A stretch of 64,000 nucleotides of DNA from an uncultured Pseudomonadota bacterium (GTDB lineage: Bacteria > Myxococcota_A > UBA796 > JAFGLY01). The notes beneath the pieces were generated by a model that was given only the letters and a program-made list of their open reading frames with translations, was not told where the DNA came from and searched no databases. Where the stretch lies: assembly GCA_937912125.1 (NCBI GenBank), contig CALDOK010000076.1:1592-65591 (forward strand), in the 5' to 3' direction. Below, piece after piece: positions 21,304-58,832 of this stretch (position 1 is the stretch's first letter; the number at the start of each line of letters is the position of its first letter). The translations under genes and the position numbers were made by a program.

Positions 21304-22350
21304 CTACAGGCCCACGTAGATCTTGGTGATCAGCTGGTCTTCCGGGGTGGTGGCCGGGTCGGAGACGTAGGCCTCCCACACCACACCGCTGCCCTCGCGC
21401 TTGTTCAGCGTGAGCCAGGCGTCGATGGCCGCGTAGGTGACAGGGAGGCTGGCGTAGGACCCGGTGTGGGTGACCTTCAGGACCTCGCCGCCCGGGCTCG
21501 TGCCGAACTGGACGGGTCCATCGATGGCGTCCTTGGGGGCGGGGCCGCTGATGGGCACACCCGCCCGGAACAGCCAGCTGTCGGCGTCGCGGGACAGGGT
21601 CACCGCGATGGGGGCGCCGGAGGGCTGCAGCTCGGCGCCCTGCATGAAGGCCTGGATCTGCCCGTAGGCGGCTCCGAGGGCCTGGGCCATGGCCTGATCG
21701 CTGTTGGCGCTGCGGGACTCCGTGGCCACGATGGTCTTGGCCTCCACCGTGGTCTGCTCGAGCTCGAGAGCGCCGATGTCTGCGACGGGCAGGCCCTCGG
21801 CCAGGGCCTTCAGCTGGGCCAGCCCCTTCTCGTAGTCAGGGCCGATCAAGCCATCGAGCAGCAGCCCGAAGATGCGGGCCACGGGGTTCATGCCGTGCTC
21901 GCTGACCAGGTTCCAGGTGGCGGTCACCCCGCCATCGGTGGGCGTGAGGGTCCAGGTGGCCATGGCCTTGCCCTGCTGCCCGAAGTCGATGGCGTGGGCC
22001 AGGGAGCTGCAGGGCTGGGCCACGGTGATCTCCATGTTGCCCGAGCCCACATTGGGGTCTTCGCTGGCCCAGATCATGCGGGAGCCGACGCCCACGCTGG
22101 GCCCTTCGTAGCTGTAGGTGGTGGCCGGATCGATGCCTGCCCAGGGGGAGAAGTCGTTCCACCACCCGTAGCCATCCAGCAGGACGTAGACGTTGCATGC
22201 CGGCGACCGGATGTCGGCGCTGCGCTCCACGGTGGTGGTGGCGGGGAGCAGGAAGGCGCCCCCGATGACGAGCACGATGACGACCAGCAGGGCGATGCCC
22301 AGACGCTTGAGGTAGGCCACGGGATTCTCCAGGTTCCAGGGTAATCCCAT
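21304..22350 (-). CDS. Membrane-anchored hypothetical protein (possible SRPBCC/GyrI-like ligand-binding fold)
   Basis: Internal M (aa 91 of the track ORF) gives MGLPWNLENPVAYLKRLGIALLVVIVLVIGGAFLLP (signal anchor). The fold assignment for the rest is weak. Stop abuts the stop of the convergent acyl-CoA ligase. Confidence 0.45.
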   Translation of the reverse strand: MGLPWNLENPVAYLKRLGIALLVVIVLVIGGAFLLPATTTVERSADIRSPACNVYVLLDGYGWWNDFSPWAGIDPATTYSYEGPSVGVGSRMIWASEDPNVGSGNMEITVAQPCSSLAHAIDFGQQGKAMATWTLTPTDGGVTATWNLVSEHGMNPVARIFGLLLDGLIGPDYEKGLAQLKALAEGLPVADIGALELEQTTVEAKTIVATESRSANSDQAMAQALGAAYGQIQAFMQGAELQPSGAPIAVTLSRDADSWLFRAGVPISGPAPKDAIDGPVQFGTSPGGEVLKVTHTGSYASLPVTYAAIDAWLTLNKREGSGVVWEAYVSDPATTPEDQLITKIYVGL

Positions 22351-22489
22351 CCTTTCACACCCACCCGCGCAGGCCAAGTGCGCGGCAGCTGTTCTGTCAT
22401 GCCCGTGACAGGGCCGACGACCGACGCCGAACTCATTAGAGGGCCGCTCCGGCGGAGCCCCCCTCCGCACGCACCCGTCTGGAGGAGCG

Positions 22490-24016
22490 ATGATCACCCT
22501 GCGTGAGAACGAGTATCGCCTGCTGCAGGCCCTGGCCCAGGCCCCCGGCCCGGTCCAGGTGGCCCAGCTCGCGGCAGCGCTCGGGCTCGACCAGAGCCTG
22601 GTGCTGGCCGCCGCCGCCACCCTCGAGGAGCGCGACCTGCTGGTCCGCGACGAGCAGAGCTACACCGAGTACCGCATCGACGCCATGGGCCAGGGCTTCG
22701 CCGACCATGGACTGCCAGAGCGCCAGGTCGTGCAGGGCTTGCGTGCCGCGGGCGGCTCCTCGACCATCCCCGAGTTGCCCCAACACTGCGGCCTGAACCC
22801 GGGCGAGATCGGGCAGTGCCTGCGCTTCCTGGTGGCCAAGGGCTGGGCGCTGCGCCAGGGCAAGGACCTCACCCTCACCCCGGCGGGTCAGGCCCTGTCG
22901 GACGAGCCCGGCCCCGACGAGGCGCTGCTCGCCGCGCTGGCTCAGCGGGAGCAGGCCACCGACGCCGAGCTCCGTGCTGCCGGCGTGGACCTCGACGCCG
23001 CCGAAGCGCTGCTCCAGGGGCGCAAGGGTGCCTACAGGTCCAAGGCCCGCAGCCTGCGCTTCCTCGAGGCCACGGCCGCCGGTCGCCAGGCCGCCCCCAC
23101 AGCCCAGCTCCGCCGGCAGGTCAACATGCTCACCGGCGAGATGTTGGCCGACGGCTCCTGGCGCGACGTGGACTTCCGCCCCTACGACATGAGCGCAGGC
23201 ACCGAGCCCGCCTTCCCGGGCAAGATCCACCCCTTCCGCCGCGTGCTCGAGCAGACCCGCCGGGTGTTCCTGGAGATGGGCTTCGAGGAGATCGTCAGCC
23301 CCTTCGTCGAGTCGGGCTTCTGGGACTTCGACGCCCTGTTCCAGCCCCAGGATCACCCCGCCCGCGAGATGCAGGACACCTTCTACGTCTCCCGGCCCGC
23401 CAGCTGCGAGCTGCCGCCCACTGAGCTGGTCGAGGCCGTGCGCAACACCCACCAGGACGGCGGCGACACCGGCGGCCTGGGCTGGGGCTACACCTGGGAC
23501 GAGTCTCTGGCCCGCAAGCCGGTGCTGCGCACCCACACCACCGCCGCCACCGTGCGGGCCCTGGCCGAGAACCCCAACCCACCCCGCAAGGTCTTCTGCG
23601 TGGGCAAGGTCTTCCGCCGCGAGACCGTGGACTACAAGCACCTGCCGGTCTTCTACCAGGTCGATGGCATCATCATCGACAAGCACGCCAGCTTCGCGTC
23701 ACTGCTGGGCACCCTCGAGGCCTTCTACCGCAAGATGGGCTTCGACAAGTTCGAGTTCCGGCCCGCGTTCTTCCCCTACACCGAGCCCTCGGTGGAGATC
23801 TTCGTCTGGTTCGAGTCCAAGCAGGACTGGGTCGAGATGGGCGGCGCCGGCGTGTTCCGCCCGGAGGTCACCAAGCCCCTGGGCTGTGACGTGCCCGTGC
23901 TGGCGTGGGGTCTGGGCCTCGAGCGCCTGGCCATGTTCCGCCACCAGCTCACCGACATCCGTCAGATCTACGTCGCCGACCTGCAGTGGCTGAAGGAGGC
24001 CGAGCTATGCCGGTAA
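22490..24016 (+). CDS. pheS: Phenylalanine--tRNA ligase alpha subunit, archaeal/eukaryotic type
   Basis: 508 aa with long N-terminal winged-helix-like region, then FRRVLEQTRRVFLEMGFEE...FQPQDHPAREMQDTFY...FRPAFFPYTEPSVEIFVW...GAGVFRPEV, the class II motifs of the long-form PheS. Confidence 0.85.
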   Translation: MITLRENEYRLLQALAQAPGPVQVAQLAAALGLDQSLVLAAAATLEERDLLVRDEQSYTEYRIDAMGQGFADHGLPERQVVQGLRAAGGSSTIPELPQHCGLNPGEIGQCLRFLVAKGWALRQGKDLTLTPAGQALSDEPGPDEALLAALAQREQATDAELRAAGVDLDAAEALLQGRKGAYRSKARSLRFLEATAAGRQAAPTAQLRRQVNMLTGEMLADGSWRDVDFRPYDMSAGTEPAFPGKIHPFRRVLEQTRRVFLEMGFEEIVSPFVESGFWDFDALFQPQDHPAREMQDTFYVSRPASCELPPTELVEAVRNTHQDGGDTGGLGWGYTWDESLARKPVLRTHTTAATVRALAENPNPPRKVFCVGKVFRRETVDYKHLPVFYQVDGIIIDKHASFASLLGTLEAFYRKMGFDKFEFRPAFFPYTEPSVEIFVWFESKQDWVEMGGAGVFRPEVTKPLGCDVPVLAWGLGLERLAMFRHQLTDIRQIYVADLQWLKEAELCR

Positions 24017-25848
24017 TCGGAATCCCCGTCAAGCTCCTCACCGAGCGCCTCGAGGGCGATCTCACCCCCGACGAGCTGGTCCAGCACCTGCAGCACATCG
24101 GCTGCGACGTCGAGGGCTTCGCCACCCTGCGCCGCATCAAGTGTACCCGCTGCGGGAACATCGTAGAGATCACCGCCACCATGGACCCCCCAGTGCTCTG
24201 CAAGCGCTGCGGTATCGACTACGTCCAGCACCCCGAGCTGCGGGTGGACCTTGGCGAGAACCACGTGATCCGCATGGAGCTGCTGGCGGTCCGCCCCGAC
24301 ATGTTCGACCCGGGCGGCCTGGCCCGCACCCTGCGGGGCTACCTGGAGCAGACCACCGGCAGCCCCGAGTACGACCTGGGCGCGCCCCTGGCCCATGTGT
24401 GGGTCGACCCGGCCATGGCCACCACGGCCTGCCCCCGGCCCGCCATCGCATGCGCCGTGGCCACCAACGTGGTGCTCGACGACGACTTCATCAAGGAGTT
24501 GATGAACCTGCAGGAGAACCTGCACTGGGCCCTGGGCCGCGACCGCAAGCACGCCAGCATCGGTGTCTACGATCTCGCTGCCACCAACGGCAAGGCCTTC
24601 CGCTATCGACCCGTCGGTCGGGACGAGCTGCGCTTCGTGCCCCTGGGCTACGACCCCCAGGACCCGGCCGCGGCCATCACCCCCCAGCAGGTGCTCGAGG
24701 AGCACCCCAAGGGCGTGGAGTTCGCCCGGCTGCTGGCAGGCTTCGAGGCCTACCCCCTGCTCGAAGACAGCGACGGCGTCGTGCTGTCCATGCCCCCCAT
24801 CATCAACTCCGAGCAGACCCGGGTCACCGACGCCACCACCAGCTTCTTCATCGACGTCACCGGCACCAACCGCCGCATCGTCTCCCGCTGCCTCAACGTG
24901 CTGGTCACCTCGCTCATGGAGCTGCAGCCCGGCATCAACCTGCACCAGGTGGGCATCCAGTACGGCGACGAGGTCCTGCACACCCCGGACTTCGCGCCCC
25001 AGGTCATGGAGCTGTCCGTCCCGGCCACCGCCGGCTGGACCGGCATCCCCATGGACGCCGTCGAGCTGGTGGAGCTGCTCAACCGCATGGGCCACGACGT
25101 GGAGATCCTCGATCCCGACACCGTCCGGGTCTCCGCTCCGGCTTACCGCAACGACCTGATGAACCCCGTCGATCTCATGGAAGACGCGGCCATCGCGTTT
25201 GGCTACCACAACATCGTGCCCACCCTGGTGCCCACCATGACCGTGGGCGGCGAGCGCCCCATCGAGGGCGTCTCTGGCACCGTGCGCTCCTGCATCACCG
25301 GCCTGGGCTGGGCCGAGGTGATGACCCTGGTGCTCACCAGCGAGGCCAAGTGCTTCGAGGCCCTGCGCCGGCCGCCGCACCAGGCCTACGTGTCTCTGGC
25401 CCACCCCATCAGCCGCGACCAGACCATGCTGCGCACCAGCCTGGCGCCGGGCCTGCTCGAGACGCTGACGGTCAACGGCCACAACAAGTACCCCCAGCGG
25501 GTCTTCGAGGTCGGCGAGACCACCGAGCTCACCGACACCCAGACCGGAGCCTCCGAGCGTCGGGCCGTGGGTGGCGTGGTCATCGGCGAGCGCATCGGTG
25601 CCACCGAGGTGCGCGCCGTGGCCGAGGCCACCCTGCGCGAGCTGGGCTGGGGCATCCGCACCCAAGGCGCCGAGCTTCCCAGCTACCTGCCCGGCCGCGG
25701 GGCCATCATCTTCGCGGTCAAGGACGGCCTGGAGATCCAGGTGGGTGAGCTGGGCGAGCTGCACCCCGCCGTGCTCGAGGCCTTCGAGCTCAAGCACCCC
25801 GCCGCCATGTTCGAGATCGACCTGACCACGCTCACAGGGCTGCGCTGA
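24007..25848 (+). CDS. pheT: Phenylalanine--tRNA ligase beta subunit, archaeal/eukaryotic type
   Basis: Internal M (aa 35 of the track ORF) gives MPVIGIPVKLLTERLEGDLTPDELVQHLQHIGCDVEGF (B1 domain), overlapping the pheS stop by 10 nt. Contains an inserted CTRCGN...CKRCG zinc ribbon. ~613 aa, as in archaeal PheT. Confidence 0.8.
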   Translation: MPVIGIPVKLLTERLEGDLTPDELVQHLQHIGCDVEGFATLRRIKCTRCGNIVEITATMDPPVLCKRCGIDYVQHPELRVDLGENHVIRMELLAVRPDMFDPGGLARTLRGYLEQTTGSPEYDLGAPLAHVWVDPAMATTACPRPAIACAVATNVVLDDDFIKELMNLQENLHWALGRDRKHASIGVYDLAATNGKAFRYRPVGRDELRFVPLGYDPQDPAAAITPQQVLEEHPKGVEFARLLAGFEAYPLLEDSDGVVLSMPPIINSEQTRVTDATTSFFIDVTGTNRRIVSRCLNVLVTSLMELQPGINLHQVGIQYGDEVLHTPDFAPQVMELSVPATAGWTGIPMDAVELVELLNRMGHDVEILDPDTVRVSAPAYRNDLMNPVDLMEDAAIAFGYHNIVPTLVPTMTVGGERPIEGVSGTVRSCITGLGWAEVMTLVLTSEAKCFEALRRPPHQAYVSLAHPISRDQTMLRTSLAPGLLETLTVNGHNKYPQRVFEVGETTELTDTQTGASERRAVGGVVIGERIGATEVRAVAEATLRELGWGIRTQGAELPSYLPGRGAIIFAVKDGLEIQVGELGELHPAVLEAFELKHPAAMFEIDLTTLTGLR

Positions 25849-25959
25849 CCCTCGCGCACCGCTGTGGCTGGTGGTCGATGAACGCCCTGCCGCGGCGCGG
25901 AAGGGAGCATGCTGGCTCGTTCTGCTGCTACGATGTCGCTGCCCCCAGCCGAGGCCGCC

Positions 25960-28902
25960 ATGCGCAGCACGTTCCTCCTCTTCATCCTGCTGCTCTCCGC
26001 CTGTCGCAGCGACCCAGACAAGTCTGACACCGGCGCCCTCGACGATGCCTGCGACTGGTACGCCGACGGCGACGGCGACGGCTACGGCGACCCCGAGGTC
26101 ATGGCCAAGGGCCCGTGCGTCGACACCCAGGACGGCTGGGCTGGCAACGCCGAGGACTGCGACGACGACGACGCGGCCATCCATCCCGCCGCCACCGAGG
26201 CCTGCAACGGCTACGACGACGACTGCGACGGCAGCGTGGATGAAGGGCTGCTCACCACCTGGTACGCCGATCTCGACGGGGACGGACACGGCGATCCCGA
26301 CAGCGCGGTCGAGGCCTGCGAGCAGCCACCGGACCATGTCGAGAGCAGCGACGACTGCGACGATGGCGACCCGGACATCCATCCAGGCGCCCCGGAGCGC
26401 TGCGACGGCGTGGATGAGGACTGCGACGGCCTGGTGGACGAAGACCTGCAGACCCGCTGGTACCTGGACAGCGACGGGGATGGCTACGGCGACGCCGAGA
26501 TCGCCATCGACTCCTGCGACCCGGGCGAAGGCTGGGTGGTCGACGCCACGGACTGCGACGACGGCGCCGAGAGCATCCATCCCGAAGCGGACGAGATCTG
26601 CAACGACCTCGACGACGACTGCGACGGCCTGGTGGACGAGGATCTCGAGTCCACCTGGTACGCCGACGACGACGGCGACGGCTACGGCGACCCGGAAACC
26701 GCGGTGGCGGACTGCGCCCCCGGCGCTGGCTGGGTGCAGCCCGCTGCCGGCGAGGACTGCGACGACGCCAACTCGGCCATCAACCCCGCCGCCACCGAAG
26801 CCTGCAACGGCTACGACGACGACTGCGACGGCCTGGTTGACGATCAGGACCCGGGTGTGGCCGACAGCGCCACCTGGTACCTCGATGCCGACGGCGACGG
26901 CTACGGTGACGATGCCGCCAGCCAGCAGGCCTGCGAGCAGCCATCGGGCACCAGCGCCCTGAGCGGCGACTGCGACGACGACGACCCCGCCTACAACCCT
27001 GGCGCCACCGAGGCCGACTGCACGGATCCCAGCGACTACAACTGCGACGGATCGGTGGGCTGGGCCGACGACGATGGAGACGGCTGGGCGGCCTGCGAAG
27101 ACTGCGACGACCGCGACGCGGCGGTCAACCCGGCGGGCGTAGAGCTGTGCAACGGCGTGGACGACGACTGCGACGGATCGGTGGACGAGGACGACGCCAC
27201 CGATGCCGCCACCTGGTACGCCGACGCCGACGGTGACGGCTATGGCGACGCCGACAGCACCACCCTGGCCTGCGCAGCCCCGTCGGGCACCGTGGCCGAC
27301 GCCACCGACTGCGACGACGGCGACGCCGGCGTCAACCCCGCGGCGGCCGAGGCCTGCAACGGCGTCGACGACGACTGCGACGGATCGGTGGACGAGGGCG
27401 TGCTCTCCATCTGGTATGCGGACAGCGACGCCGACGGATACGGCGACGCTGGCGACAGCACCGAGGCCTGCTCTCAGCCCTCGGGCTCCGTCGCCGACGA
27501 CAGCGACTGCGACGATGACGACGGGACGATCAACCCCGCCGCCACCGAGACCTGCGACGGCGCCGACAACGACTGCGACGGTACCGTGGACGAGGCGGAC
27601 GCCAGCGACGCCGCCACCTGGTACCAGGATCACGACGCCGACGGCTTCGGCGATGCCAGCGCCGGCACCATCGCCTGCGACCAACCCTCCGGCGCCGTGG
27701 CGGATGACACGGACTGCGACGACGGCGAAGGCCAGGTCAACCCGGCCGCGGACGAGCTGTGCAACGGCATCGACGACGACTGCGACGGCACCATCGACAC
27801 GGGCGCGGTGGACGAGGCCTCGTGGTACGCCGACACAGACGCCGATGGCTACGGTGACCCCGGCAGCAGCACAGCTGCCTGCACCCAGCCCTCGGGCTCC
27901 GTCGCCGACGACAGCGACTGCGACGACACGGACGCGTCCATCAACCCCGCCGCCACCGAGACCTGCGACGGCGCCGACAACGACTGCGACGGCCACACCG
28001 ACGAGGACGACGCCGCGGACGCGACAGCCTGGTACGCGGACGCCGACAGCGACGGCTTCGGCGACGCCGGCGACAGCGTGACCGCCTGCGCCGCTCCCTC
28101 CAGCTATGTGGGAGACAGCACGGACTGCGACGACGCCGACGGGTCCATCAATCCCGCCGCCACCGAGACCTGCGACGGCGTGGACCAGGACTGCAGCGGC
28201 GCGCTGTCGTGGCTCGAGCAGGACGCTGACGGTGACGGGTACCTGGCCTGCGAGCTGTCCCTGTGGCTGCGCAGCGACGGCTCGATCAACAACGACCCCG
28301 CGACCAGCGGCACCTACGGCTCCAGCGAGGCCGCCGCGCTGCTGGCGGTCGAGGGCATGGACTTCGACACGGCCGACACCGCCGCCACCACGCTCACCGC
28401 CGCCCTGCTGGACAAGTACGGCCTGCTGGTGCTGCACGGCACCGCGGCCTACGGCACGCTGGACGCCAGCGAGAGCGCCGCCCTCGAGGACTGGGTGCGC
28501 GACGGCGGCAGCCTGCTCTACCTGGCCTACCACCCCAGCTCCTACACCTGCGCCATGGTCAACAGCCTGCCTTCCGCCTTCGGGCTCGGCTGCAGCGACT
28601 ACGCGAGCTACTGGAGCGGCTCGGCCACCAGCATCGTCTCCCACGCCGTCACAGCCGACATCTCCACCATCGAGGGCATGGGCGGCGAGCACTGGACCGT
28701 GGCCAGCCCCGCCCAGACCGTCGTGGACCAGGCCGGCTGGCCGGTCGTGGTCGTGCTCGAGCTCGAGGATGGCCGCGTGGTGGGCCTGGCGGACGAGTGG
28801 CCCCTGTACGACAGCGGCACGGGCAGCGCCGACATCAGCCAGGGCGACAACTGGATCCTGCTGGAGAACACCTGGGCCTGGTTGGCTGACTTCGCCCTGT
28901 GA
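25960..28902 (+). CDS. Giant lipoprotein with ~14 tandem Cys-rich Asp-rich repeats (MopE-like metal-binding motif) and a C-terminal alpha/beta domain
   Basis: Internal M gives MRSTFLLFILLLSACRSD (lipobox). Repeat unit WYADxDGDGYGDxxxxxxACxxPxGxVxDxxDCDDxDxxxNPxAxExCNGxDDDCDGxVDE, about 14 copies. The C-terminal ~230 aa are non-repetitive. Confidence 0.8.
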   Translation: MRSTFLLFILLLSACRSDPDKSDTGALDDACDWYADGDGDGYGDPEVMAKGPCVDTQDGWAGNAEDCDDDDAAIHPAATEACNGYDDDCDGSVDEGLLTTWYADLDGDGHGDPDSAVEACEQPPDHVESSDDCDDGDPDIHPGAPERCDGVDEDCDGLVDEDLQTRWYLDSDGDGYGDAEIAIDSCDPGEGWVVDATDCDDGAESIHPEADEICNDLDDDCDGLVDEDLESTWYADDDGDGYGDPETAVADCAPGAGWVQPAAGEDCDDANSAINPAATEACNGYDDDCDGLVDDQDPGVADSATWYLDADGDGYGDDAASQQACEQPSGTSALSGDCDDDDPAYNPGATEADCTDPSDYNCDGSVGWADDDGDGWAACEDCDDRDAAVNPAGVELCNGVDDDCDGSVDEDDATDAATWYADADGDGYGDADSTTLACAAPSGTVADATDCDDGDAGVNPAAAEACNGVDDDCDGSVDEGVLSIWYADSDADGYGDAGDSTEACSQPSGSVADDSDCDDDDGTINPAATETCDGADNDCDGTVDEADASDAATWYQDHDADGFGDASAGTIACDQPSGAVADDTDCDDGEGQVNPAADELCNGIDDDCDGTIDTGAVDEASWYADTDADGYGDPGSSTAACTQPSGSVADDSDCDDTDASINPAATETCDGADNDCDGHTDEDDAADATAWYADADSDGFGDAGDSVTACAAPSSYVGDSTDCDDADGSINPAATETCDGVDQDCSGALSWLEQDADGDGYLACELSLWLRSDGSINNDPATSGTYGSSEAAALLAVEGMDFDTADTAATTLTAALLDKYGLLVLHGTAAYGTLDASESAALEDWVRDGGSLLYLAYHPSSYTCAMVNSLPSAFGLGCSDYASYWSGSATSIVSHAVTADISTIEGMGGEHWTVASPAQTVVDQAGWPVVVVLELEDGRVVGLADEWPLYDSGTGSADISQGDNWILLENTWAWLADFAL

Positions 28903-28941: not shown

Positions 28942-30210
28942 TCAGCCCGCCAGCAGCTCCCGATACTCCTGGATGGCCGCCTCCTGGGCCTCGAGTCGAA
29001 CCCGGTCCAGCTCCCCTTGGTGGCTGCGCGCGAGCTTGACCAGGCGGGGGTCCAGCGCTCCCTGCTGGGCCATGTCCCCCAGGATGTCCAGGGCTCTCTC
29101 CGTACCCATGCCATCGCGGTAGGGACGATCCTCGGTCAGGGCCACGAACACGTCGGCCACGGCCATGATGCGGGACCCCATGCTGATGTCCCTGCCGCCG
29201 ATGTGGAAGGGATACCCCCTGCCATCGAGCCGCTCGTGGTGGTAGGCCGCCCACTCGGCGATCACCTCGAAGTCCCGGATGGGCCGCAGTGCCCGCCAGG
29301 TGGAGTAGGTGTGGCTGCGTATGAGGTTGAACTCGGCCTCGCTCAGCTTGGCGGGCTTCTCGAGCACCTCGGCGGGCACCGCCAGCTTGCCCAGATCGTG
29401 CAGCAGGCCCGCGGCCCGCATCAGCGCCTGCTCGCGGGGGCTGAAGCCTGCGTGGCGCGCCAGGAACTCCGCGGTGGCCGCCACCCCCGCCGAGTGGGAG
29501 GCGGTGAAGCGCGACCTGAAGTCGATGAGCCGCGCGAAGAACGCCGCCAGCTCGAACACCCCCTGCATGTCGAGCTCGACGGCCTCGTCACCCAGCCGAC
29601 GACGGATCTCGCCGCCCAGGGTCGGGGAGACCAGGTCGAGCCACAGGGATTCCTGACGCGCCAAGGCTTCGAAGGTTTCCACCAGCCCAGGGTGGAACAG
29701 TCGCCCCGCCTCCCCCCGGATCCGCGCGGCGATCCCGGCGACCTGCCCCAGGACCTCCGCGCCCCGGTCCACCAGCACAGCGATGCGGTCGGCCAGGTGC
29801 AGGATGTGCGCCTCGATGGGCTCGTCACCCGGCGCCGAGCGGTGCCCCCACACCGCATGGTGGCCGCCTACGATGGGGGCCAGGTCACTCAGCAGCGAGA
29901 AGGTTCCGAGCAGGCGAGCACCCATCCGCGCGTGGTCCTGGAGCCCCTCCGCCTCGAACTCCAGCACCCCCAGGCGCTCGCTGACGGTCATACCGCCCAG
30001 ATCGTGCAGAGCCCCCGCCACGATGCAAGTGCGCTGACGCTCCCGCCCGAGCCCGTGGGCTTCGGCGATGCGAGCGGCCAGGTAGGCCACCTGCTTGTGG
30101 TGGTTGCTCAGCGCAGGGCTGACCATGTCCACCGTGTCGGAGATGCACATGATGAGATCGAAGGTCGAGATTCGGTAAGAGCGCAGCATCGTCCAACAGT
30201 CCTCCCACAA
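28942..30210 (-). CDS. Tandem HD / HD-GYP domain protein (putative c-di-GMP phosphodiesterase or sensor)
   Basis: Two HD modules: ...HHKQVAYLAARIAEAHGL...GALHDLG... and ...HSAGVAATAEFLARHAGF...LLHDLGKLAVP...HHERLDGRGYP (HD-GYP signature). True start may be an internal M (aa 8, 21 or 29). Confidence 0.85.
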   Translation of the reverse strand: MWEDCWTMLRSYRISTFDLIMCISDTVDMVSPALSNHHKQVAYLAARIAEAHGLGRERQRTCIVAGALHDLGGMTVSERLGVLEFEAEGLQDHARMGARLLGTFSLLSDLAPIVGGHHAVWGHRSAPGDEPIEAHILHLADRIAVLVDRGAEVLGQVAGIAARIRGEAGRLFHPGLVETFEALARQESLWLDLVSPTLGGEIRRRLGDEAVELDMQGVFELAAFFARLIDFRSRFTASHSAGVAATAEFLARHAGFSPREQALMRAAGLLHDLGKLAVPAEVLEKPAKLSEAEFNLIRSHTYSTWRALRPIRDFEVIAEWAAYHHERLDGRGYPFHIGGRDISMGSRIMAVADVFVALTEDRPYRDGMGTERALDILGDMAQQGALDPRLVKLARSHQGELDRVRLEAQEAAIQEYRELLAG

Positions 30211-30255
30211 AGCGGCACACGGTGCCTATCCCACAAGGCACACCCGCGGCCTCGC

Positions 30256-31054
30256 TCACGGGGTCGTCTGGACCCTTTTGGGTACCTTTCGGGTATTCCA
30301 CGGTACCCCTTCTGAGCTCGACAGGTGGACGCGGGTTCGCCACTGGGCGGTGATCTCCAGGCTGTCTCCGTCCACCCGTGCCGCGTCCATGTCGGTCATC
30401 ACGTGGGCCTGGGTCCACTGTCCGCGGAGGTGGGGTCGTCGTTCATGGCCCGCAGCACGGGCAACAAGCCGAGAACAGGGTGGCCCCATTGACCCACACC
30501 AGGCGCAGATCCGCCACCGCGGAGTCGGTCGGCGCCAAGCCAGCAGCCCGCCCAGGCCCAGCTGTCGGGCCAAGGGGCCCGACCGGCGGCTATCGAGCCC
30601 TGTGGGACGGTCCACCCCGGCCCAGCAGCAGCGCCAGCGCCACGGGCCTGTCGGGATCGTCGGAATCGACGACCACATAGTCCTCGTGGTCGCCAGGCCC
30701 GGAAGGCCTGAAGAACGCAGAGAAGTGGGTGCAGGCCTGCGGCGGGACCAGCACGGACTCGGGGAGCCCGAAGCTGAACGACCCTGCATTCTCTTCCAGC
30801 TCGATGTTCTGGATGTGCAGGTCGGCGTCACCGAGGTTGCAGATCTCGAGATCCTTGCTCACCTCGCTCGGAGGCGTCAGGTCCACCAAGCCGAAGTCCA
30901 GCTCGCCCGGCTATAGGGTGATGTCAGGCACCCTCCCGTTATCGATGTCGCCGTCGATGTGATGCTCGGAGGGGCTCGCTGGAGGCGGTCCACACGCCAC
31001 GCTCCAGCACAGCAGCGCAGGGGTCACATAGCTGCGACAGGGTCGGCGCTTCAT
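30256..31054 (-). pseudogene. Disrupted lipoprotein gene (choice-of-anchor-D / DUF1573-like beta-sandwich fragment) with in-frame stop and frameshift
   Basis: Minus-strand translation from the ATG at 31054 gives MKRRPCRSYVTPALLCWSVACGPP...DITL then TAG, then PGELDFGLVDLTPPSEVSKDLEICNLGDADLHIQNIELEENAGSFSFGLPESV... The frame is then lost near 30600, and only a second frame continues to 30256. Local GC about 58-60% versus ~70% elsewhere. Confidence 0.4.
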
Positions 31055-31316
31055 GGCAGCTCCAGGGTTGAGACAGATCTGTGCGACGGAGTCGTCGGAA
31101 CGATCACCTGCGCGCGGTCGGTCGGGCAGGACTCCCTCGGCCTCGACACCGCCGGCTGCCCGCCCTCCCGAGCTTGGTTCCCAGCCCGCCCGGTGGAATA
31201 GCCCACGGCAGCGCCGCGTACATGGGGCGCCTACGGCGCCATTCGTTGCGCCGCTGGCGGAGGCGGCTACGTTCCCCTCCGATCCTCACCCCGTTCTCGA
31301 CCGCAGGAGAGCAACC

Positions 31317-32684
31317 ATGGGCCTCTGGGACACCCTCAAGACTCACGCCGGCGCACAGTTCCTCGATGTCATCCAGTGGCTGGACGACAGCCGCGACACC
31401 CTGGTCTACCGCTACCCCATCATGAACCAGGCCATCCAGGACGGCGGCAAGCTGGTCGTGCGCGAGGGCCAGGCGGCCATCTTCGTCGCCGAAGGCCGCT
31501 TCTCCGAGTGCTTCGGCCCGGGTTCCTACGAGCTGTCCACCCGCACCAAGGCCATCTGGGGCTTCTTCGAGACCATCAAGTACGCCCTGAACTACCCGTA
31601 CAAGGGCGACATCTACTTCGTGAACACCCGCCAGTTCCCGGACCAGAAGTGGGGCACCCCCCAGCCCCTGCCGGTGCGCGACCCCGAGTTCGGCTCCATC
31701 CAGATCCGGGCCTTCGGCATCTACCAGTACCGCATCACCGATCCGGTCAAGTTCCTGCGCGAGGTGGTGGGCACCGACGGCCTGTTCACCACCGATGAGA
31801 TCAACGGGCAGCTCAAGCGCAAGGTGCTGTCGGTCTTCGCCGCCCTGCTGCGCGACGCCAAGATCCCCTTCGACATGCTGGTGGGCGCTGGCCTCGAGCT
31901 GGCCGAGGCCCTGAAGGAAAAGATCACGCCCATCTTCGAGGAGTCCTACGGCATCGCCGTCACCGACTTCACCGTCGATGGCGTCACCCTGCCCCCCAAG
32001 GTCCAGGAGTACTACGAGAAGCGTCAGGGCATGGGCATCCTGGGCGATCTGAACGCCTACACCCGCCTGCAGCAGGCCGACGCCATCGGCGACGCCGCCC
32101 GCAACACGGGCATCGGCGGGGCCGGCGTGGGCATGGGCGTGGGCTGGGCCATGGGCCAGCAGATCGGCGGCGCCATGTCGGGTCCTCAGCAAGGTGGCGG
32201 CCAGTTCAACCCCCACCAGGGCCTTCAGGGCGGCGGCGCTCCCCCTCCTCCCCCTCCAGGGCTGGCCAAGCTGCACTACAACGGCGACGCCGGCAGCGGC
32301 GAGTACACCGCTCAGGAGATCGCCCAGATCGTGGCCAACAACCGCACGGGCACCCACCACGTGTGGGCCCAGGGCTGGCCGGGCTGGAAGCCGTGGTCCG
32401 AGGTCCCTGAGATCGTCCGGGCCGTGCCGCCCGCCCCTCCCCCTCCTCCGCCCTCGGCCAGCCAGCCCTTCCACTACCTGGGCGCGGGCGAACAGGCTGA
32501 GCAGCTGCCAGCCGCCGAGATCGCCAAGCGCGTGCTGGCCGACCCCACCGGTCGTCACCTGGTGTGGCGCCTCGAGCTGGGTGGCTGGAAGCCCGCCACC
32601 GAGGTCGGCGAGATCGCCGCGCAGCTCAACGCCGGCGGCCCGCCGCCCCCTCCGGGCTCGATGCCGCCTCCCCCGCCGGCCTAG
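31317..32684 (+). CDS. SPFH/band-7 domain protein with two C-terminal GYF-like (DUF4339-like) domains
   Basis: Internal M with RBS AGGAGAGCAACC gives MGLWDTLKTHAGAQFLDVIQWLDD...YELSTRTKAIWGFFETIKYALN... (SPFH/COG4260-like). C-terminus has Gly/Pro-rich linkers and two copies of ...HVWAQGWPGWKPWSEVPEI / ...LVWRLELGGWKPATEVGEI. Confidence 0.8.
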   Translation: MGLWDTLKTHAGAQFLDVIQWLDDSRDTLVYRYPIMNQAIQDGGKLVVREGQAAIFVAEGRFSECFGPGSYELSTRTKAIWGFFETIKYALNYPYKGDIYFVNTRQFPDQKWGTPQPLPVRDPEFGSIQIRAFGIYQYRITDPVKFLREVVGTDGLFTTDEINGQLKRKVLSVFAALLRDAKIPFDMLVGAGLELAEALKEKITPIFEESYGIAVTDFTVDGVTLPPKVQEYYEKRQGMGILGDLNAYTRLQQADAIGDAARNTGIGGAGVGMGVGWAMGQQIGGAMSGPQQGGGQFNPHQGLQGGGAPPPPPPGLAKLHYNGDAGSGEYTAQEIAQIVANNRTGTHHVWAQGWPGWKPWSEVPEIVRAVPPAPPPPPPSASQPFHYLGAGEQAEQLPAAEIAKRVLADPTGRHLVWRLELGGWKPATEVGEIAAQLNAGGPPPPPGSMPPPPPA

Positions 32685-32873
32685 CAGCCCCGATCTCCGC
32701 ACGCCCACGCCCGCCCCGAGCGCGGCGTGGGTGTCGTGCATCGGGCCTCACGCAGCGCGCGCCCCGGGGAGACAACGCGACATCTCCGGGCTTATTTCCT
32801 GGCTTTTCACCATCTTTCAGAGCCTGGCACACGCCTTGCAAAAGCGACAGGCGACCCCAACCGGAGAGCCACC

Positions 32874-33317
32874 ATGTCCCGCATCGCCTTCCTCGCCGTC
32901 AGCACCCTCGCCCTGACCCTCACCATCGCCGGCTGCGAGCTGGGCGGCGAGGGTCCCAGCTCGGGCGCCTTCACCATCATCACCGGCGACTGCGAGGGCG
33001 ACGGCTACGGCAAGGACATGGACACCGGCTCGCCCGACCCCACGGCCGTCTGGGCCGAGGCCGACGGCCGCGACGCCGTCCTGCACCTGGACAACCTGCT
33101 GGCCAACTGCTGCCCCAGCGCCGACGCCACCGTCACCATCGACGGCACGGACATCCTGGTGGAGTTCGAAGACGTGACCACCGAGGACCCCTGCGACTGC
33201 ATGTGCGTGACGGACTTCCTGATCACCATCGAAGATCTCGACCCGGGCGCCTACACCATCGAGGTGGACTACGACGGCAGCATCATCGGCGACGCCGAGG
33301 TGGAGATCGAGGCATAG
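32874..33317 (+). CDS. Small hypothetical lipoprotein
   Basis: Internal M gives MSRIAFLAVSTLALTLTIAGC (lipobox). Acidic Cys-containing body (CEGDGYG, CDCMC). Confidence 0.55.
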   Translation: MSRIAFLAVSTLALTLTIAGCELGGEGPSSGAFTIITGDCEGDGYGKDMDTGSPDPTAVWAEADGRDAVLHLDNLLANCCPSADATVTIDGTDILVEFEDVTTEDPCDCMCVTDFLITIEDLDPGAYTIEVDYDGSIIGDAEVEIEA

Positions 33318-33463
33318 CCTCGGCTCGAGGGCTGCCTGACCGTTTCTTTTCTTTTCCGCCTCCACGCGGGAAGCCCGCCTTGACCCTGGCATGGCGGAAA
33401 GACAGGCAGCCACGGCCAAGTCGCCGGGTCAAGCGCCACTGTTCAGGAACCGATGGGCCCGAT

Positions 33464-34633
33464 GTGACCCGGGTCCCGACCCGAGCATCCCGAGCCATCC
33501 GTTGCCGCCTCCTGGGCAGCGCCGGTTTCTGCCCAGGGGGCGCCTTGACCAAACCTCCACCCCTCTTGGACACGCCCTTCCCCCAGTCCCCTGAGGACAC
33601 CCAGCGGGAAACTGCCCTGCGCGACCTCATCAAGCTGGGCGCCGTGGCCTCCTACCTGGGCAGGGGCGAGCACCCACGGCGCGTCCTGGGCTTGGCGCTG
33701 GGCATGGTGCTGGATCTGACGGGGGGCACCACCGTGGCGTTGCTGGTGGATGACCGGGTGCTGGAGGCGCTGGCCAGCCCCCTCGAGCGCAGCCTGGGCC
33801 AGATGGACTTCGGGGAGCGCAGCCGCCTGGTGGCCCGCGGCCCCGTGGCCGATCGGATCCGTGACTGGGAGGGCTCGAGCGCGCCGGTGCTGTCACTCGA
33901 GGGCGCCGACCTCGTGATCCCGGGCTCCGGCGGCGGGCTCGAGGTGCAGGAGCCCGACTGCGGCGCGCTGGGGGAACCCGGGCGCGTGGTCCTGCTGCAC
34001 ACCCTCACCGATCTGTGTACCGGCTTGGCCATGCTGGCGGCCAAGCAGGTGGAGTCCGAGCAGCGAGCGCGCGCCCTGGTGGAGACCCGCGCACGCTTCC
34101 GGGAGCAAAACCTGCTGCTGCGTGAGCTGGCCGTGGTGGACGAGCTGACGGGCCTGTACAACCGCCGCTTCTTCGACGGGCGCCTGCAGTATGAGCTCGA
34201 CCGCCTGGGGCGCTACGGCTCTCCCCTGTCCCTGTTGGTGATGGACATCGATCACTTCAAGGCGGTCAACGATCAGCACGGCCACCCGGTGGGCGACGAG
34301 GTGCTGCGGCAGCTGGCCAGCCGCTGCAAGGCCATGATCCGCCGCGTGGATCTGCTGGCCAGGATCGGCGGCGAGGAGTTCGCGCTGCTGATGCCATGCA
34401 CTGGCGGCGAGGGTGCCATGGCGGTGGCGGGCCGCTTGCTGGCCACCGTCGCCAGCCCGCCCTTCGCCCTGGGCGAACTGGCCCTTCCGCTGACCATCTC
34501 CATCGGCCTGGCGACCGTCGCCGGGGGCTGGCAGGGTGACGCCGCTCAGATCTTCCGCGCCGCGGACCAGGCGTTGTACCGCGCCAAGCTCGACGGGCGA
34601 AATCGCGTCGTGGTAGCTATGAAGACAGCATGA
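33464..34633 (+). CDS. Diguanylate cyclase (GGDEF) with N-terminal GAF-like sensory domain
   Basis: C-terminal VDELTGLYNRRFFDGRL...LLVMDIDHFKAVNDQHGHPVGDEVL...RIGGEEFALLMP. Start uncertain (GTG 33464 or TTG 33566), with no in-frame ATG before the domain. Confidence 0.75.
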   Translation: MTRVPTRASRAIRCRLLGSAGFCPGGALTKPPPLLDTPFPQSPEDTQRETALRDLIKLGAVASYLGRGEHPRRVLGLALGMVLDLTGGTTVALLVDDRVLEALASPLERSLGQMDFGERSRLVARGPVADRIRDWEGSSAPVLSLEGADLVIPGSGGGLEVQEPDCGALGEPGRVVLLHTLTDLCTGLAMLAAKQVESEQRARALVETRARFREQNLLLRELAVVDELTGLYNRRFFDGRLQYELDRLGRYGSPLSLLVMDIDHFKAVNDQHGHPVGDEVLRQLASRCKAMIRRVDLLARIGGEEFALLMPCTGGEGAMAVAGRLLATVASPPFALGELALPLTISIGLATVAGGWQGDAAQIFRAADQALYRAKLDGRNRVVVAMKTA

Positions 34634-35490
34634 GCACCTCCGACGGATTCAGCGACAAGGTCATCGGCGCCCGCCTGGCGCGGGCGGATGATCTGGGCGT
34701 GTTCCCTCCAGCTGCGGTCCGCATCCTGAGGGTGGTGGACGATCCGCGCACCAACCTCGTGGACCTCGAGAAGGCCGTCTCCATGGACCCGGTGCTCACA
34801 GCCCAGGTCCTCAAGGTCGCCAACTCGGCCTACTTCGGGCTGGCCCGCACTGTGGGCAGCCTGCGCCAGGCGCTGTTCGTGCTGGGCTTCCGCACCGTGC
34901 GCTCGATGGCCCTGTCCCTGGCGGCGATGACCATGGGCGCCACCGAGGGCCCCTGGCGGCGCAGGGTCTGGCGCCGCAGCATCCGCACCTGCCACGCCAT
35001 GCGCCACCTGGGCACCCACGTGGACTGGGACGACTACGCCGAGCCCTTCGCTGTAGGCCTGCTCCACAAGATCGGCATGCTGCTGCTGCTGGTGCTCGAG
35101 GAGAAGACCTACGTCGACATGCTCGAGCGGATGCGCTGGGGCTCCCCCGAGCTGCTCGAGAAAGAGGCCCACTTCTTCGGCTTCGACCACATCCTGCTCG
35201 GCGCGGCCTGCCTCGAGCGCTGGAACCTGCCCGAGGAAGTCTGCCTGGCGGTCCGCCATCAAGAAAACCCCGACGCCCTGGCCGGCCAGGATGACCCCCA
35301 GCTGCTCGCCAGGATGCTGTGGATCGCTACGCGCATGGAGCGTCGCCTTTCCACCCAGGAAGGCGCCGACACCATCGCGGTGGCCCTGGCCGCCACCCCC
35401 GTGGCCCAGCAGATGGGCCTGAGCGTCGCCGTGTTGACCAACATCGCCGTGGCGGTCCGTCGCGAAGACGACGACATGTTCTCGCTGTAG
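34630..35490 (+). CDS. HDOD domain signalling protein
   Basis: FPPAAVRILRVVDDPRTNLVDLEKAVSMDPVLTAQVLKVANSAYFGL...LLHKIGMLLL. ATGA overlap with the GGDEF gene stop. Confidence 0.8.
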   Translation: MSTSDGFSDKVIGARLARADDLGVFPPAAVRILRVVDDPRTNLVDLEKAVSMDPVLTAQVLKVANSAYFGLARTVGSLRQALFVLGFRTVRSMALSLAAMTMGATEGPWRRRVWRRSIRTCHAMRHLGTHVDWDDYAEPFAVGLLHKIGMLLLLVLEEKTYVDMLERMRWGSPELLEKEAHFFGFDHILLGAACLERWNLPEEVCLAVRHQENPDALAGQDDPQLLARMLWIATRMERRLSTQEGADTIAVALAATPVAQQMGLSVAVLTNIAVAVRREDDDMFSL

Positions 35491-35588
35491 GGACGGCCAG
35501 AGGCCAGGGGTAGGGCTCCCACTCGTGGGCGCTGACCCAAGAAACTCGAAGTATGCTTCCTCATGCAAACGACCTGAGAGGAGGACGC

Positions 35589-36878
<1,290 letters not shown>

Positions 36879-36881
36879 TTC

Positions 36882-37271
36882 ATGGCCGCCCCCACCCTGC
36901 GCTTCATCAGCCTCTTCGTGCCCGAGCTCGAGGCCACCGCCGCCCGCTACACCGCCTTCCTGGGCGTTTCGCCGGTGCTGGACGACCCCGACGTACCCCG
37001 GGACCACCCCTACGCTGCAGGCCCGCCCCTGGTCTTCCCCCTGGGCCAGGTCAAGCTGGCGCTGTACCCCTGCGACGACCGCATCACCCACCCGGGCGAC
37101 GTGGCCCTGGGCCTGCACGCCGACGATCTCCCCGCCGTCATGGGCGCCGCCGAGGGGGCTGGTGCCAAGCTCTTTCCCCGCCGACCACCCATCGGCGACG
37201 GCCGCGAGCTGGGGGTCTTCGTGCTCCCCGACAAGCACTACTTCGAGGTGCTGGGTCCGAAGAGCGGCTAG
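36882..37271 (+). CDS. VOC (glyoxalase/bleomycin-resistance/dioxygenase) family protein
   Basis: 129 aa starting 4 nt after the radical SAM stop. LRFISLFVPELEATAARYTAFLGV...YFEVL pattern of the betaalphabetabetabeta VOC fold. Confidence 0.6.
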   Translation: MAAPTLRFISLFVPELEATAARYTAFLGVSPVLDDPDVPRDHPYAAGPPLVFPLGQVKLALYPCDDRITHPGDVALGLHADDLPAVMGAAEGAGAKLFPRRPPIGDGRELGVFVLPDKHYFEVLGPKSG

Positions 37272-38296
37272 CCGAACACCCCGTGCAGCGGCCGCCCGCA
37301 GCGGGCGCAGGCCGCGCCGTTCATCCTCCGCTCCCCCAGCTGGTAGCCCGCCCGCTCGATCAGCCGCTCCCCGCAGCCCGCACAGAAGGTGCTGGAGGCC
37401 TCGGGGTCGTAGACATTGCCCAGGTAGACGTGGTGCAGGCCGTGCTGCTGGGCGATGGTCCGGGCACGCTGCTGGGTGGCGTGGGGGGTGCGGGGTCTGT
37501 CGAGGAGCTTGTGGGCGGGGTGGAAGGCGCTGAAGTGTACGGGGACCTCAGGGCCCAGCTCCCCGGCAACGAAGGCGCACAGCGCCTCCAGCTCCGTGTC
37601 GCTGTCGTTCTCGCCCGGGATCAGCAGCGTGGTGAGCTCCAGCAGGATCGGCGTCTCCCGAGCCAGGTAGCGCAGGGTGTCCAGCACCGGGTCCAGCCGG
37701 GCTCCGCAGAGCCGCCGGTAGAACGAGTCTGAGAAGGACTTCAGATCGATGTTGGCTGCATCCATCACCCCGAAGAACGCCTCGCGGGGGCCCGGGCTGA
37801 CGTAGCCGGCGCTCACAGCCACCGCGCGAACCCCAGCCTCGCGACAAGCCAGAGCGGTGTCGATGGCGTACTCGGCGAAGATCAGCGGCTCGTTGTAGGT
37901 GAACGCCACCGACTCACAGCGCTCCCCGCCCGCCAGCCGAGCGATCTGCTCTGGGCTGGCGTGGGCCTGGGCCCGGTCGGCGCTGCGGGCCCTGGACAGA
38001 TCCCAGTTCTGGCAGAAGCGGCAGCCCAGGTTGCAGCCCGCGGTGCCGAACGAGAGCACGCGGCTGCCCGGCAGGAAGTGGTACAGTGGCTTCTTCTCGA
38101 TGGGATCCACCGCGAAGCCGCTCGAGCGGCCATAGGTGTCCAGCACCAGGCCGTCCTCGTCCGCCAGCCGCACGTAGCAGTAGCCTCGCTGGCCCGACTC
38201 GAGCTCGCAGGCCCGCGGGCACAGCTCACAACGAAAGCGGGACAGGGCGCCCGGTACGCGGCTCCACCAGCGCGCGGGATGGGGAGAGGAACCCAT
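37268..38296 (-). CDS. Radical SAM enzyme of the PFL-activase-like / AmmeMemoRadiSam family
   Basis: CELCPRACEL...GYCYVR N-terminal region. TAGCNLGCRFCQNW (CxxxCxxC). ...HVYLGNVYD...TFCAGCGERLIERAGY and C-terminal CARCGRPLHGVFG, typical of the TIGR04337-like family. Confidence 0.75.
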   Translation of the reverse strand: MGSSPHPARWWSRVPGALSRFRCELCPRACELESGQRGYCYVRLADEDGLVLDTYGRSSGFAVDPIEKKPLYHFLPGSRVLSFGTAGCNLGCRFCQNWDLSRARSADRAQAHASPEQIARLAGGERCESVAFTYNEPLIFAEYAIDTALACREAGVRAVAVSAGYVSPGPREAFFGVMDAANIDLKSFSDSFYRRLCGARLDPVLDTLRYLARETPILLELTTLLIPGENDSDTELEALCAFVAGELGPEVPVHFSAFHPAHKLLDRPRTPHATQQRARTIAQQHGLHHVYLGNVYDPEASSTFCAGCGERLIERAGYQLGERRMNGAACARCGRPLHGVFG

Positions 38297-38375
38297 GGCT
38301 CACCTCAGGGGTCGATGGTGCTCAGCGTAGCGCATCACACCGACCCCCACCGGGTCGGCTCCCGGTCCCCGACCC

Positions 38376-56616: not shown

Positions 56617-56719
56617 GGCCAGCGTGTTGCTCCGGACGTGGTGGACGGGTACAGTCGGGCGAAGTCCGGCGGACCGCCGCCGCTCCCGTCCAGAGAGTAT
56701 AGGCGCAGGAGGTACCTCG

Positions 56720-57259
56720 ATGCTGGCCGCCATTCCGCTGTTGTTGGCCCTTACGACGGGCGTGGTCCGAGCACAAGAGCCCATCACGGTGGGAGCGCCC
56801 GCCCGGGCCTTCTCCCTGCAAGCCATGAACGAGGACGCCGCGGTAGCCCTCGTTCGGCAGCGCACGGTCACCCTCGGCGAGCTGGTCGGCATCCAGCCTG
56901 CCCACCCCGCCACGGGGGTGGTGCTGTACTTCTTCGACCGCCCCGGCGGCGGCGAAGGCCTGCGCCCCATCAACAACCTGGCTCGCCGCTACCGCAGTGA
57001 GGGCATCCGCTTCATCGCCATCTCCATCGATGCCGAGCCCGAGGTGGCCGACTGGGTCACCAGCCTGCGCCTCGACTTTCCCGTGCTTCGCGACAACCAC
57101 CACATCGTCGCCGACCGCTACGGTGTGCGGGAGACCCCCATGGTGGTGCTGGTGGACTCCAACGGCATCGTCTTCTCAGCCGGCGCGCCCGCGATGATGG
57201 AGCTCGAGGCCACCCTGGACGCCGAGGTCCGAGCGCTGGTGTCCCCCACCGGCGAGTAG
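56720..57259 (+). CDS. Secreted redoxin/TlpA-like thioredoxin-fold protein lacking CxxC
   Basis: RBS AGGAGGT. MLAAIPLLLALTTGVVRAQEP signal. ...VVLYFFDRPGGGEGLRPINNLARRYRSEGIRFIAISID...HIVADRYGV...VVLVDSNGIV (AhpC/TSA-redoxin layout, no catalytic Cys pair). Confidence 0.6.
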   Translation: MLAAIPLLLALTTGVVRAQEPITVGAPARAFSLQAMNEDAAVALVRQRTVTLGELVGIQPAHPATGVVLYFFDRPGGGEGLRPINNLARRYRSEGIRFIAISIDAEPEVADWVTSLRLDFPVLRDNHHIVADRYGVRETPMVVLVDSNGIVFSAGAPAMMELEATLDAEVRALVSPTGE

Positions 57260-57305
57260 CCGCGCTGGGCAGCCCAGCGACGAAACCCCGACTGCCCCAG
57301 GCCTG

Positions 57306-58832
<1,527 letters not shown>

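Follow-up and report, generated by a model that had tools for sequence, protein, structure and literature searches.

Phenylalanyl-tRNA synthetase (PheRS) shows one of the clearest splits between bacterial and archaeal forms among the aminoacyl-tRNA synthetases, and the spirochaetes provide the textbook case of its interdomain replacement. Here we describe a pheS–pheT gene pair located at positions 22490 to 25848 of a 64-kb stretch of contig CALDOK010000076.1 (the whole of this stretch is termed the window). The pair encodes a PheRS of the archaeal/eukaryotic type, whose beta subunit carries a putative zinc ribbon inserted into domain B1. The locus appears to be part of a second bacterial clade that has such an enzyme, one that is independent of the spirochaete case and much larger.

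The closest described systems among bacteria are those of Spirochaeta, Borrelia and Treponema, which carry archaeal pheS–pheT genes acquired by interdomain transfer (Andam & Gogarten 2011, PMC3191353). Both subunits moved together from a Thermococcales-like donor, the outcome was replacement, and the beta subunits comprise 514–573 aa (PMC3191353). The long-alpha, short-beta layout is the same as that of the window pair, but in the clade of the window the beta subunit has ~600–620 aa with the ribbon, and the clade extends over many more lineages. A literature search of partial coverage for ribbon-bearing or non-spirochaete bacterial PheRS of archaeal type returned the spirochaete case and general reviews only. 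The window pair is not a one-off, and the larger clade is apparently undescribed. The proteins are already annotated automatically as PheRS subunits in public records; what is new is that they are recognised as a clade, with a wide distribution and an insertion that marks it.

The bacterial enzyme of Escherichia coli (PheS/PheT, b1714/b1713) performs the same reaction with the same (alpha-beta)2 logic, using homologous catalytic, B1, B3/4, B5 and catalytic-like modules. Its alpha subunit has 327 aa and lacks winged-helix domains, whereas that of the window has 508 aa and contains them, and its beta subunit has a C-terminal FDX-ACB anticodon-binding domain that is missing from the window protein. 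The E. coli genes lie in the context rplT-pheM-pheST-ihfA with a leader peptide, none of which is present at the window locus. Compared with the E. coli proteins, and counting the shared core alone, alpha is 29% identical to PheS and beta 24% identical to PheT. The archaeal and eukaryotic enzymes (human FARSA/FARSB, 3L4G; Pyrococcus horikoshii, 2CXI) have the same long alpha subunit as the window, with three DNA-binding-fold domains and the class II core, and a beta subunit that likewise lacks B2 and B8 and is built of B1, B3/4, B5 and the catalytic-like module. The window pair differs from these in its bacterial host, its overlapping two-gene operon and the ~41-residue Cys4 ribbon that tips the B1 hairpin, and its beta subunit is only 25–41% identical to archaeal and eukaryotic beta subunits.

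The two subunits

The genes and the principal features of their products, with the exception of the insertion, are as follows:

22490–24016, + strand: pheS, archaeal/eukaryotic-type PheRS alpha (ATG start, 508 aa; matches to NF003210 and PF01409)
22490–23071, + strand: N-terminal extension of alpha, three winged-helix-like units (residues ~1–63, 65–129 and 142–194; from Pfam and the AlphaFold2 model)
23183–23998, + strand: class II catalytic core of alpha (residues 232–503; PF01409; motif 2 F375-R-R-E378, motif 3 G474-L-G-L-E-R479)
24007–24016, + strand: 10-nt overlap of the alpha stop and beta start (ATGCCGGTAA; read from the sequence)
24007–25848, + strand: pheT, archaeal/eukaryotic-type PheRS beta (613 aa; match to TIGR00471)
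24760–24861, + strand: B3/4 editing-site segment of beta (L252, S261, N267, D283 and T285; from alignment to P. horikoshii)
25009–25824, + strand: beta B5 (residues 335–400; PF03484, 5.2e-16) and catalytic-like module (residues 406–606; PF17759, 1.2e-39)

A preliminary description of this locus had given its coordinates, the lengths of 508 and 613 aa, the 10-nt overlap and the cysteine motifs discussed below, and all of these agree with the sequence.

The alpha subunit matches the NCBIfam model of the long archaeal-type alpha (NF003210) over residues 2–506 with 529 bits, compared with a cut-off of 350 bits, and Pfam PF01409 over residues 232–503 (1.2e-89). Residues 4–62 match the Pfam families MarR_2 (33.8 bits, above the 27-bit cut-off), HTH_IclR and HTH_24. 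In the AlphaFold2 model, with a predicted local distance difference test (pLDDT) of 86.5 overall, three units of helices and strands lie within residues 1–215 at pLDDT 91–97. The long alpha with an N-terminal winged-helix region noted in the preliminary description is thereby borne out. Three N-terminal DNA-binding-fold domains define the archaeal/eukaryotic alpha subunit (PMC3275996). Within the catalytic core H289-P-A-R292, R376 and E378 are invariant among 120 alpha homologues, and G474-L-G-L-E-R479 is near-invariant (≥90%). The best match in the PDB is human FARSA (3l4g), the full-length alignment to 3l4g_C spanning 518 columns, and the catalytic domain is 44% identical to that of human alpha versus the 29% for E. 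coli PheS.

The beta subunit scores 432 bits against the NCBIfam model TIGR00471 (pheT_arch; cut-off 283 bits) and 119 bits against TIGR00472 (pheT_bact; cut-off 403 bits). While B5 and the catalytic-like module are matched as listed above, the Pfam matches of B1 and B3/4 are weak. B2 (PF01588) and B8/FDX-ACB (PF03147) gave no Pfam match in beta, and both were recovered in E. coli PheT by the identical scan. The AlphaFold2 model (pLDDT 95.4) superimposes on human FARSB (3l4g_B) with a TM-score of 0.79/0.82, and on the N-terminal Pyrococcus fragment 2cxi with a TM-score of 0.94 (normalised by target length) and a root-mean-square deviation of 2.2. The nearest solved structures are 8s8b, human 3l4g and P. 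horikoshii 2cxi, while the bacterial enzymes match the shared core only.

The layout of bacterial PheST, with an alpha subunit of ~330–350 aa having a coiled-coil N-terminus and a ~790-aa beta subunit containing B2 and B8, is not that of the 508/613-aa pair. Both subunits are of the archaeal/eukaryotic type by hidden Markov model cut-offs, domain content, predicted structure and the distance tree described below. This assignment had been made in the preliminary description, and neither a place in the bacterial PheST clade nor bacterial domain boundaries were found.

The editing site is located in B3/4. L252, S261, N267, D283 and T285 of beta align with L202, S211, N217, D234 and T236 of P. horikoshii; L252, N267, D283 and T285 are invariant in the family alignment and S261 is kept in the consensus. 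N267 corresponds to N238 of the human enzyme, and at this position the archaeal/eukaryotic asparagine replaces the bacterial histidine. In addition to Asn217 we take L202, S211, D234 and T236 of P. horikoshii to be editing residues. The editing role of Asn217 itself has been described (PMC3275996). Comparison with four relatives gave ratios of non-synonymous to synonymous substitution rates (dN/dS) of 0.25–0.48. With these values and the conserved catalytic and editing residues, the enzyme looks complete and constrained.

The conserved motifs, purifying selection and conserved operon suggest that the subunits form an (alpha-beta)2 tetramer, charging tRNA-Phe and editing Tyr-tRNA-Phe. The class II core of alpha would activate phenylalanine and charge tRNA-Phe, and its three winged-helix-like domains would take the place of the tRNA recognition performed by B8 in the bacterial enzymes. 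The catalytic-like module of beta is expected to support assembly of the tetramer, and the intact B3/4 site to hydrolyse mischarged Tyr-tRNA-Phe. Both subunits would be made from one message, with the start of beta lying inside the stop region of alpha.

The Cys4 insertion in domain B1

Close to its N-terminus the beta subunit contains a segment that has no counterpart in the archaeal PheT sequences sampled:

24130–24252, + strand: putative zinc-ribbon insertion in B1 (beta residues ~42–82; alignment gap versus archaeal PheT)
24142–24153, + strand: knuckle 1, C46-T-R-C49
24199–24210, + strand: knuckle 2, C65-K-R-C68

Relative to archaeal PheT the insertion comprises ~41–45 residues, flanked by the sequences GCDVEGFATL and VIRMELLAVRPD, and the RPD motif is displaced from position ~48–55 in the archaeal proteins to 96–98. 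It is absent from all ~100 archaeal PheT N-termini sampled, which were drawn from Thermococci, Aenigmarchaeota, Diapherotrites, Nano- and Pacearchaeota, Thermoplasmata, Thor- and Heimdallarchaeia, Bathyarchaeia, Thermoprotei and Methanobacterium, and from both eukaryotic beta sequences examined. The preliminary description had noted an inserted CTRCGN...CKRCG ribbon and proposed its alignment with archaeal PheT; that alignment leaves the ribbon without an archaeal equivalent in the sample, and among homologues the C46xxC49-x15-C65xxC68 arrangement is general.

CxxC-x15-CxxC is present in 119/119 full-length beta homologues with identities down to 51%, and in 75 of the 76 GTDB loci that have a complete N-terminus. 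Within the representatives kept for the tree, and with the window excluded, 29 of 31 full-length members of the ribbon clade contain it. When the representatives of clusters at 50% identity are ordered by similarity, all but one of the full-length members of the top block carry the cysteine motif. Below this block there is an abrupt switch to proteins of 530–575 aa that align from residue ~85 of the query and lack the insert. The ribbon therefore is a hallmark of the whole bacterial clade, as judged from these alignments, and not a peculiarity of this gene.

In the AlphaFold2 model of beta the insert has a pLDDT of 90–96. It is flanked by two long strands (residues 34–46 and 79–91), and short strands lie beside the knuckles. 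Within the insert dN/dS is 0.20–0.37. Generic Cys4 ribbons (Zn_ribbon_8, Ribosomal_S27e, RPAB4 and the HypA type) likewise have two CxxC knuckles ~15 residues apart and short beta-hairpins. The window ribbon differs in being an internal insertion within a synthetase domain instead of a free-standing module, and in scoring below the gathering threshold of every Pfam zinc-ribbon family, so that it falls in none of the curated ones. Its weak profile matches are nevertheless exclusively to zinc-ribbon families, the best having an E-value of 0.0025 and 18 bits where the cut-off is 34 bits.

In E. coli PheT the same point of B1 is occupied by B2, an oligonucleotide/oligosaccharide-binding (OB) fold of ~100 residues (Pfam tRNA_bind, 45–145). 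In an alignment of the N-termini the flanks of the E. coli insertion, GLEVDGVEPV and IEISVTPNRAD, correspond to GCDVEGFATL and VIRMELLAVRPD of the window. The structural hallmark of the clade thus occupies the site of a tRNA-binding domain in the bacterial enzymes. Most likely the ribbon is a small module beside the editing domain that has a structural role or contacts RNA, and from its position it might act as a miniature B2. It offers a testable way to learn how a synthetase, once transferred, becomes adapted to a foreign tRNA and editing context.

A further insert at this site was observed in an archaeal PheT of 691 aa (P0282, L087:10001–12076), on a contig with a gene for an aEF1A-type elongation factor nearby. 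It comprises ~105 residues with several ribbons (CPNC...CPKC...CPNC...CPNC), and its sequence is unrelated to that of the window ribbon. Because E. coli B2, the window ribbon and the P0282 insert share their position, the tip of the B1 hairpin appears to be a recurrent insertion site.

Distribution and origin of the clade

The distribution was examined in GTDB, each species being represented by a single genome. This form of PheRS is encoded by at least 200 of the representatives, and the best 80 are all metagenome-assembled genomes (MAGs). The closest among the matches listed is 90% identical and has an unreliable taxon label. At 62–66% identity there are MAGs of Myxococcales, Polyangia, Myxococcota and ‘Deltaproteobacteria’, and at 44–57% those of Eremiobacterota (Vulcanimicrobiota, Xenobia), many of Phycisphaerae/Planctomycetota, others labelled Eisenbacteria, Nitrospinia and Actinomycetota, and one Spirochaetia MAG (L038), which has the ribbon type. 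Wallbacteria are also found among the relatives. Within the clade identity falls to 37–50%. A divergent 574-aa member that bears the ribbon is encoded among genes for BamA, TamB and NusB, and is assigned to a bacterium on account of these neighbours. The preliminary description had regarded this layout as known in a few bacterial groups; that was too narrow, given the number of species representatives and the many phylum labels borne by the 80 listed MAGs. Several MAGs with close relatives are titled ‘uncultured Enterobacterales’ or ‘Burkholderiales’ (binchicken third-party annotation assemblies). These titles look like placeholders or errors, unfit for taxonomy.

A neighbour-joining tree was calculated from 395 columns with 200 bootstraps and rooted at the midpoint or with the eukaryotes. 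It included one sequence from Thermococci, many partial archaeal sequences, and neither a bacterial outgroup nor an authentic Borrelia or Treponema sequence. All 200 bootstraps recover the ribbon clade as monophyletic, and the window falls with the loci labelled Myxococcota in a subclade with 100% support. The sister of the ribbon clade is a ‘Euryarchaeota’ MAG (77%), followed by a Methanobacterium-like pair (58%), and grouping with Thermococci occurred in 0/200 bootstraps. When 150 more representatives were included the ribbon clade was still one group inside sequences without the ribbon, one of them labelled Thermoplasmatota. Since the clade never groups with Thermococci, and has the longer beta subunit and the ribbon, it is taken as an acquisition separate from that of the spirochaetes. 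Within the clade the labels follow the phyla only imperfectly, and both Myxococcota and Xenobia are found in two places; this may reflect later transfers between bacteria or poor labelling of bins.

We consider it probable that the window encodes a working archaeal/eukaryotic-type PheRS that derives from an old transfer of a euryarchaeal-like operon and to which the ribbon was added, most probably serving as the housekeeping enzyme. An archaeal pheST operon would have entered Bacteria long ago, separately from the Thermococcales-to-spirochaete transfer, and the B1 hairpin would have gained the Cys4 ribbon at its tip during or after this event, early in the bacterial clade. pheS and pheT are included in marker sets for bacterial phylogenomics, where these lineages would either lack them or give a misleading signal. 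Antibacterial compounds that inhibit the bacterial form of PheRS would probably miss these organisms.

A number of observations count against this explanation or restrict it. Using E. coli queries, no second, bacterial-type pheS or pheT, and no rplT or ihfA, was found in the window and ~0.9 Mb of flanks of related loci, an extent that limits the housekeeping assignment; all matches to E. coli PheS and PheT in the window and the fetched loci fell on the archaeal-type genes themselves. There are no tRNA genes in the window and no tRNA-Phe among the 16 tRNAs of the related loci. Consensus scans around the operon gave neither a sigma-70 promoter nor a terminator, and there was no Rfam match at E ≤ 1 to a leader, riboswitch or T-box. 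In a Planctomycetales locus (L053, 6001–7845) and in the protein P0271 the ~40-residue insert is kept but three or all four of its cysteines are lost. Zinc binding is hence not indispensable, which weakens a zinc-specific function, and the fold or bulk of the insert may be more important than the metal. With the most divergent representatives included, the ribbon clade has a lower support of 57%. Finally, the donor lineage and direction of transfer are suggestive only, because the tree is a neighbour-joining tree of 395 columns with partial archaeal sequences and no outgroup.

The location of the pair outside the classical infC-rpmI-rplT-pheST-ihfA context could indicate an auxiliary second PheRS, inhibitor resistant or stress specific, beside a housekeeping bacterial pheST, and duplicate synthetase genes for self-resistance are known in natural-product producers. 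We regard this as unlikely. The neighbouring genes encode an acyl-CoA ligase, an SRPBCC/GyrI-like protein, an aminotransferase and a MopE-repeat protein, and there is no biosynthetic cluster among the immediate neighbours; a resistance gene within such a cluster was specifically rejected, these being unrelated genes of housekeeping type. The codon composition is native. The operon is kept in at least 200 species representatives bearing many phylum labels, unlike a niche resistance gene, and the precedent of the spirochaetes is one of replacement and not addition. The pair is almost certainly not an archaeal fragment that was mis-assembled or mis-binned into a bacterial contig. The archaeal affinity of both genes, and nothing else, points that way, whereas GC content (~70%) and GC content at third codon positions (GC3) are uniform over the 64 kb, there are bacterial genes on both flanks, and the arrangement was assembled independently in several samples and is found in 80 other bacterial loci. 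Archaeal contamination was rejected on the composition and the bacterial flanking genes.

A different history, in which the ribbon clade is an ancient vertical bacterial lineage or bacteria were the donors to some archaea, with no transfer from archaea to bacteria, would accord with the depth of the clade (lowest identities of 37–50%), its many phylum labels and a tree rooted by midpoint or eukaryotes instead of an outgroup. It is improbable, as the distribution is patchy within phyla, the 80 listed loci are all from uncultured MAGs, and to our knowledge cultured Myxococcota have a bacterial-type PheRS. Moreover, the clade nests in ribbon-less sequences including proteins labelled Thermoplasmatota, Methanobacterium and ‘Euryarchaeota’, and the ribbon is a derived insertion. 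The role of the ribbon could also be read in two other ways. Cys4 zinc sites are sensitive to oxidation, and B1, the domain with the ribbon, directly precedes the B3/4 editing domain in the sequence, as would suit a redox- or zinc-sensing switch that tunes editing or activity under oxidative stress. Oxidation is reported to alter the PheRS editing domain, giving hyperaccuracy (PMC8599791). The persistence of variants without cysteines speaks against such a switch. Most zinc ribbons in translation proteins are structural, and we think the switch improbable. The other possibility is broader, and we entertain it only tentatively: one archaeal pheST operon of ancient date took the place of the essential bacterial PheRS in the forebears of lineages that now bear the labels of many phyla (among them parts of Myxococcota, Eremiobacterota, Phycisphaerae/Planctomycetota, Eisenbacteria, Nitrospinia and Wallbacteria), and the ribbon is an adaptive, convergent stand-in for B2 without which the archaeal enzyme would not cope with bacterial tRNA-Phe or edit efficiently. 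If true, the ribbon would be a molecular signature of how an interdomain transfer of a synthetase is made workable.

Gene organization and neighbouring genes

The start of alpha is preceded by a Shine-Dalgarno sequence, GGAGGAG, at 22481–22487, and no in-frame start exists upstream of 22490. The reading frame of beta is open already from a GTG at 23905, but the start is placed at the ATG at 24007 because 119/120 beta homologues begin MPV[IV]G. A Shine-Dalgarno sequence for beta (AAGGAGG, 23993–23999) lies within alpha, 7 nt ahead of this ATG, and the TAA stop codon of alpha (24014–24016) falls inside beta. Alpha is directly upstream of beta in nearly all related loci, and the pair with its overlap is kept across ~60 of them; among 65 related pheS–pheT loci the overlap is 10 nt in 43 and 13 nt in 14. 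This arrangement suggests translational coupling and stoichiometric production of alpha and beta. Coupled translation had been asserted in the preliminary description; the overlap itself is real, and coupling is a reasonable reading of it.

Upstream of the operon there is a divergent gene:

21304–22350, − strand: SRPBCC/GyrI-like gene, divergent from pheS
22351–22489, + strand: intergenic region between this gene and pheS, presumed promoter and 5′ untranslated region (gene calls on identical contigs and sequence)

The window has a uniform GC content of ~70%, with bacterial genes on both sides of pheS–pheT, and the GC3 values of alpha (0.93) and beta (0.91) are similar to those of the neighbouring genes. 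The bacterial genes of the two sides include those for UvrD, a PilB-type ATPase, a GlmU-like protein, a class III aminotransferase, an acyl-CoA ligase, the SRPBCC/GyrI-like protein, a MopE-repeat protein, HD-GYP, GGDEF and HDOD proteins, a TonB-dependent-receptor-like outer-membrane protein and a bacterial-type Tgt. The exact beta sequence occurs on contigs of several ENA metagenome samples (aquatic-labelled and others), which were assembled independently and have an identical gene order; no record of the exact alpha sequence was found. There is upstream synteny with three related loci (L001, L002 and L012; 77–90% identical). The host is probably a Myxococcota-related bacterium. The preliminary description had called the genome myxobacterial, which gains indirect support from the relatives in Myxococcota MAGs, the subclade in the tree and the myxobacteria-like, high-GC diderm genes.

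Several other regions of the window are worthy of note. Following pheT, with no predicted terminator between, is a gene with strong AT skew (0.32) for a 997-aa protein (25909–28902, + strand), in which MopE-type repeats of the ‘putative metal-binding motif’ (PF11617, 326 bits), at least 10 in number, are accompanied by a C-terminal DUF4350. A cyclic-di-GMP cluster extends over 28942–35490, comprising HD-GYP (28942–30210, − strand), GGDEF (32564–34633) and HDOD (34630–35490) genes with an SPFH/GYF protein between. The region 35553–41878 is a possible peptide-maturation locus. It encodes a radical SAM/SPASM enzyme resembling nif11-class/GDL-motif peptide maturases (~250–260 bits, below the cut-offs), a 130-aa open reading frame without a family, an AmmeMemoRadiSam radical SAM enzyme (514 bits) and two TldD/PmbA-like proteins. 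An open reading frame of 613 aa at 4078–5919 (− strand) has good coding statistics and matches no Pfam family, and the adjacent stretch at 6.1–7.3 kb has a GC content of 73–75%, unusual AT skew and no recognisable family. Lastly, the contig with the archaeal-type PheRS also encodes tRNA enzymes of bacterial type at 55318–60189, namely a CCA-adding/PcnB-like nucleotidyltransferase (55318–56976) and Tgt (58975–60189), the latter scoring 479 bits with the bacterial queuine model versus 140 with archaeal TgtA.

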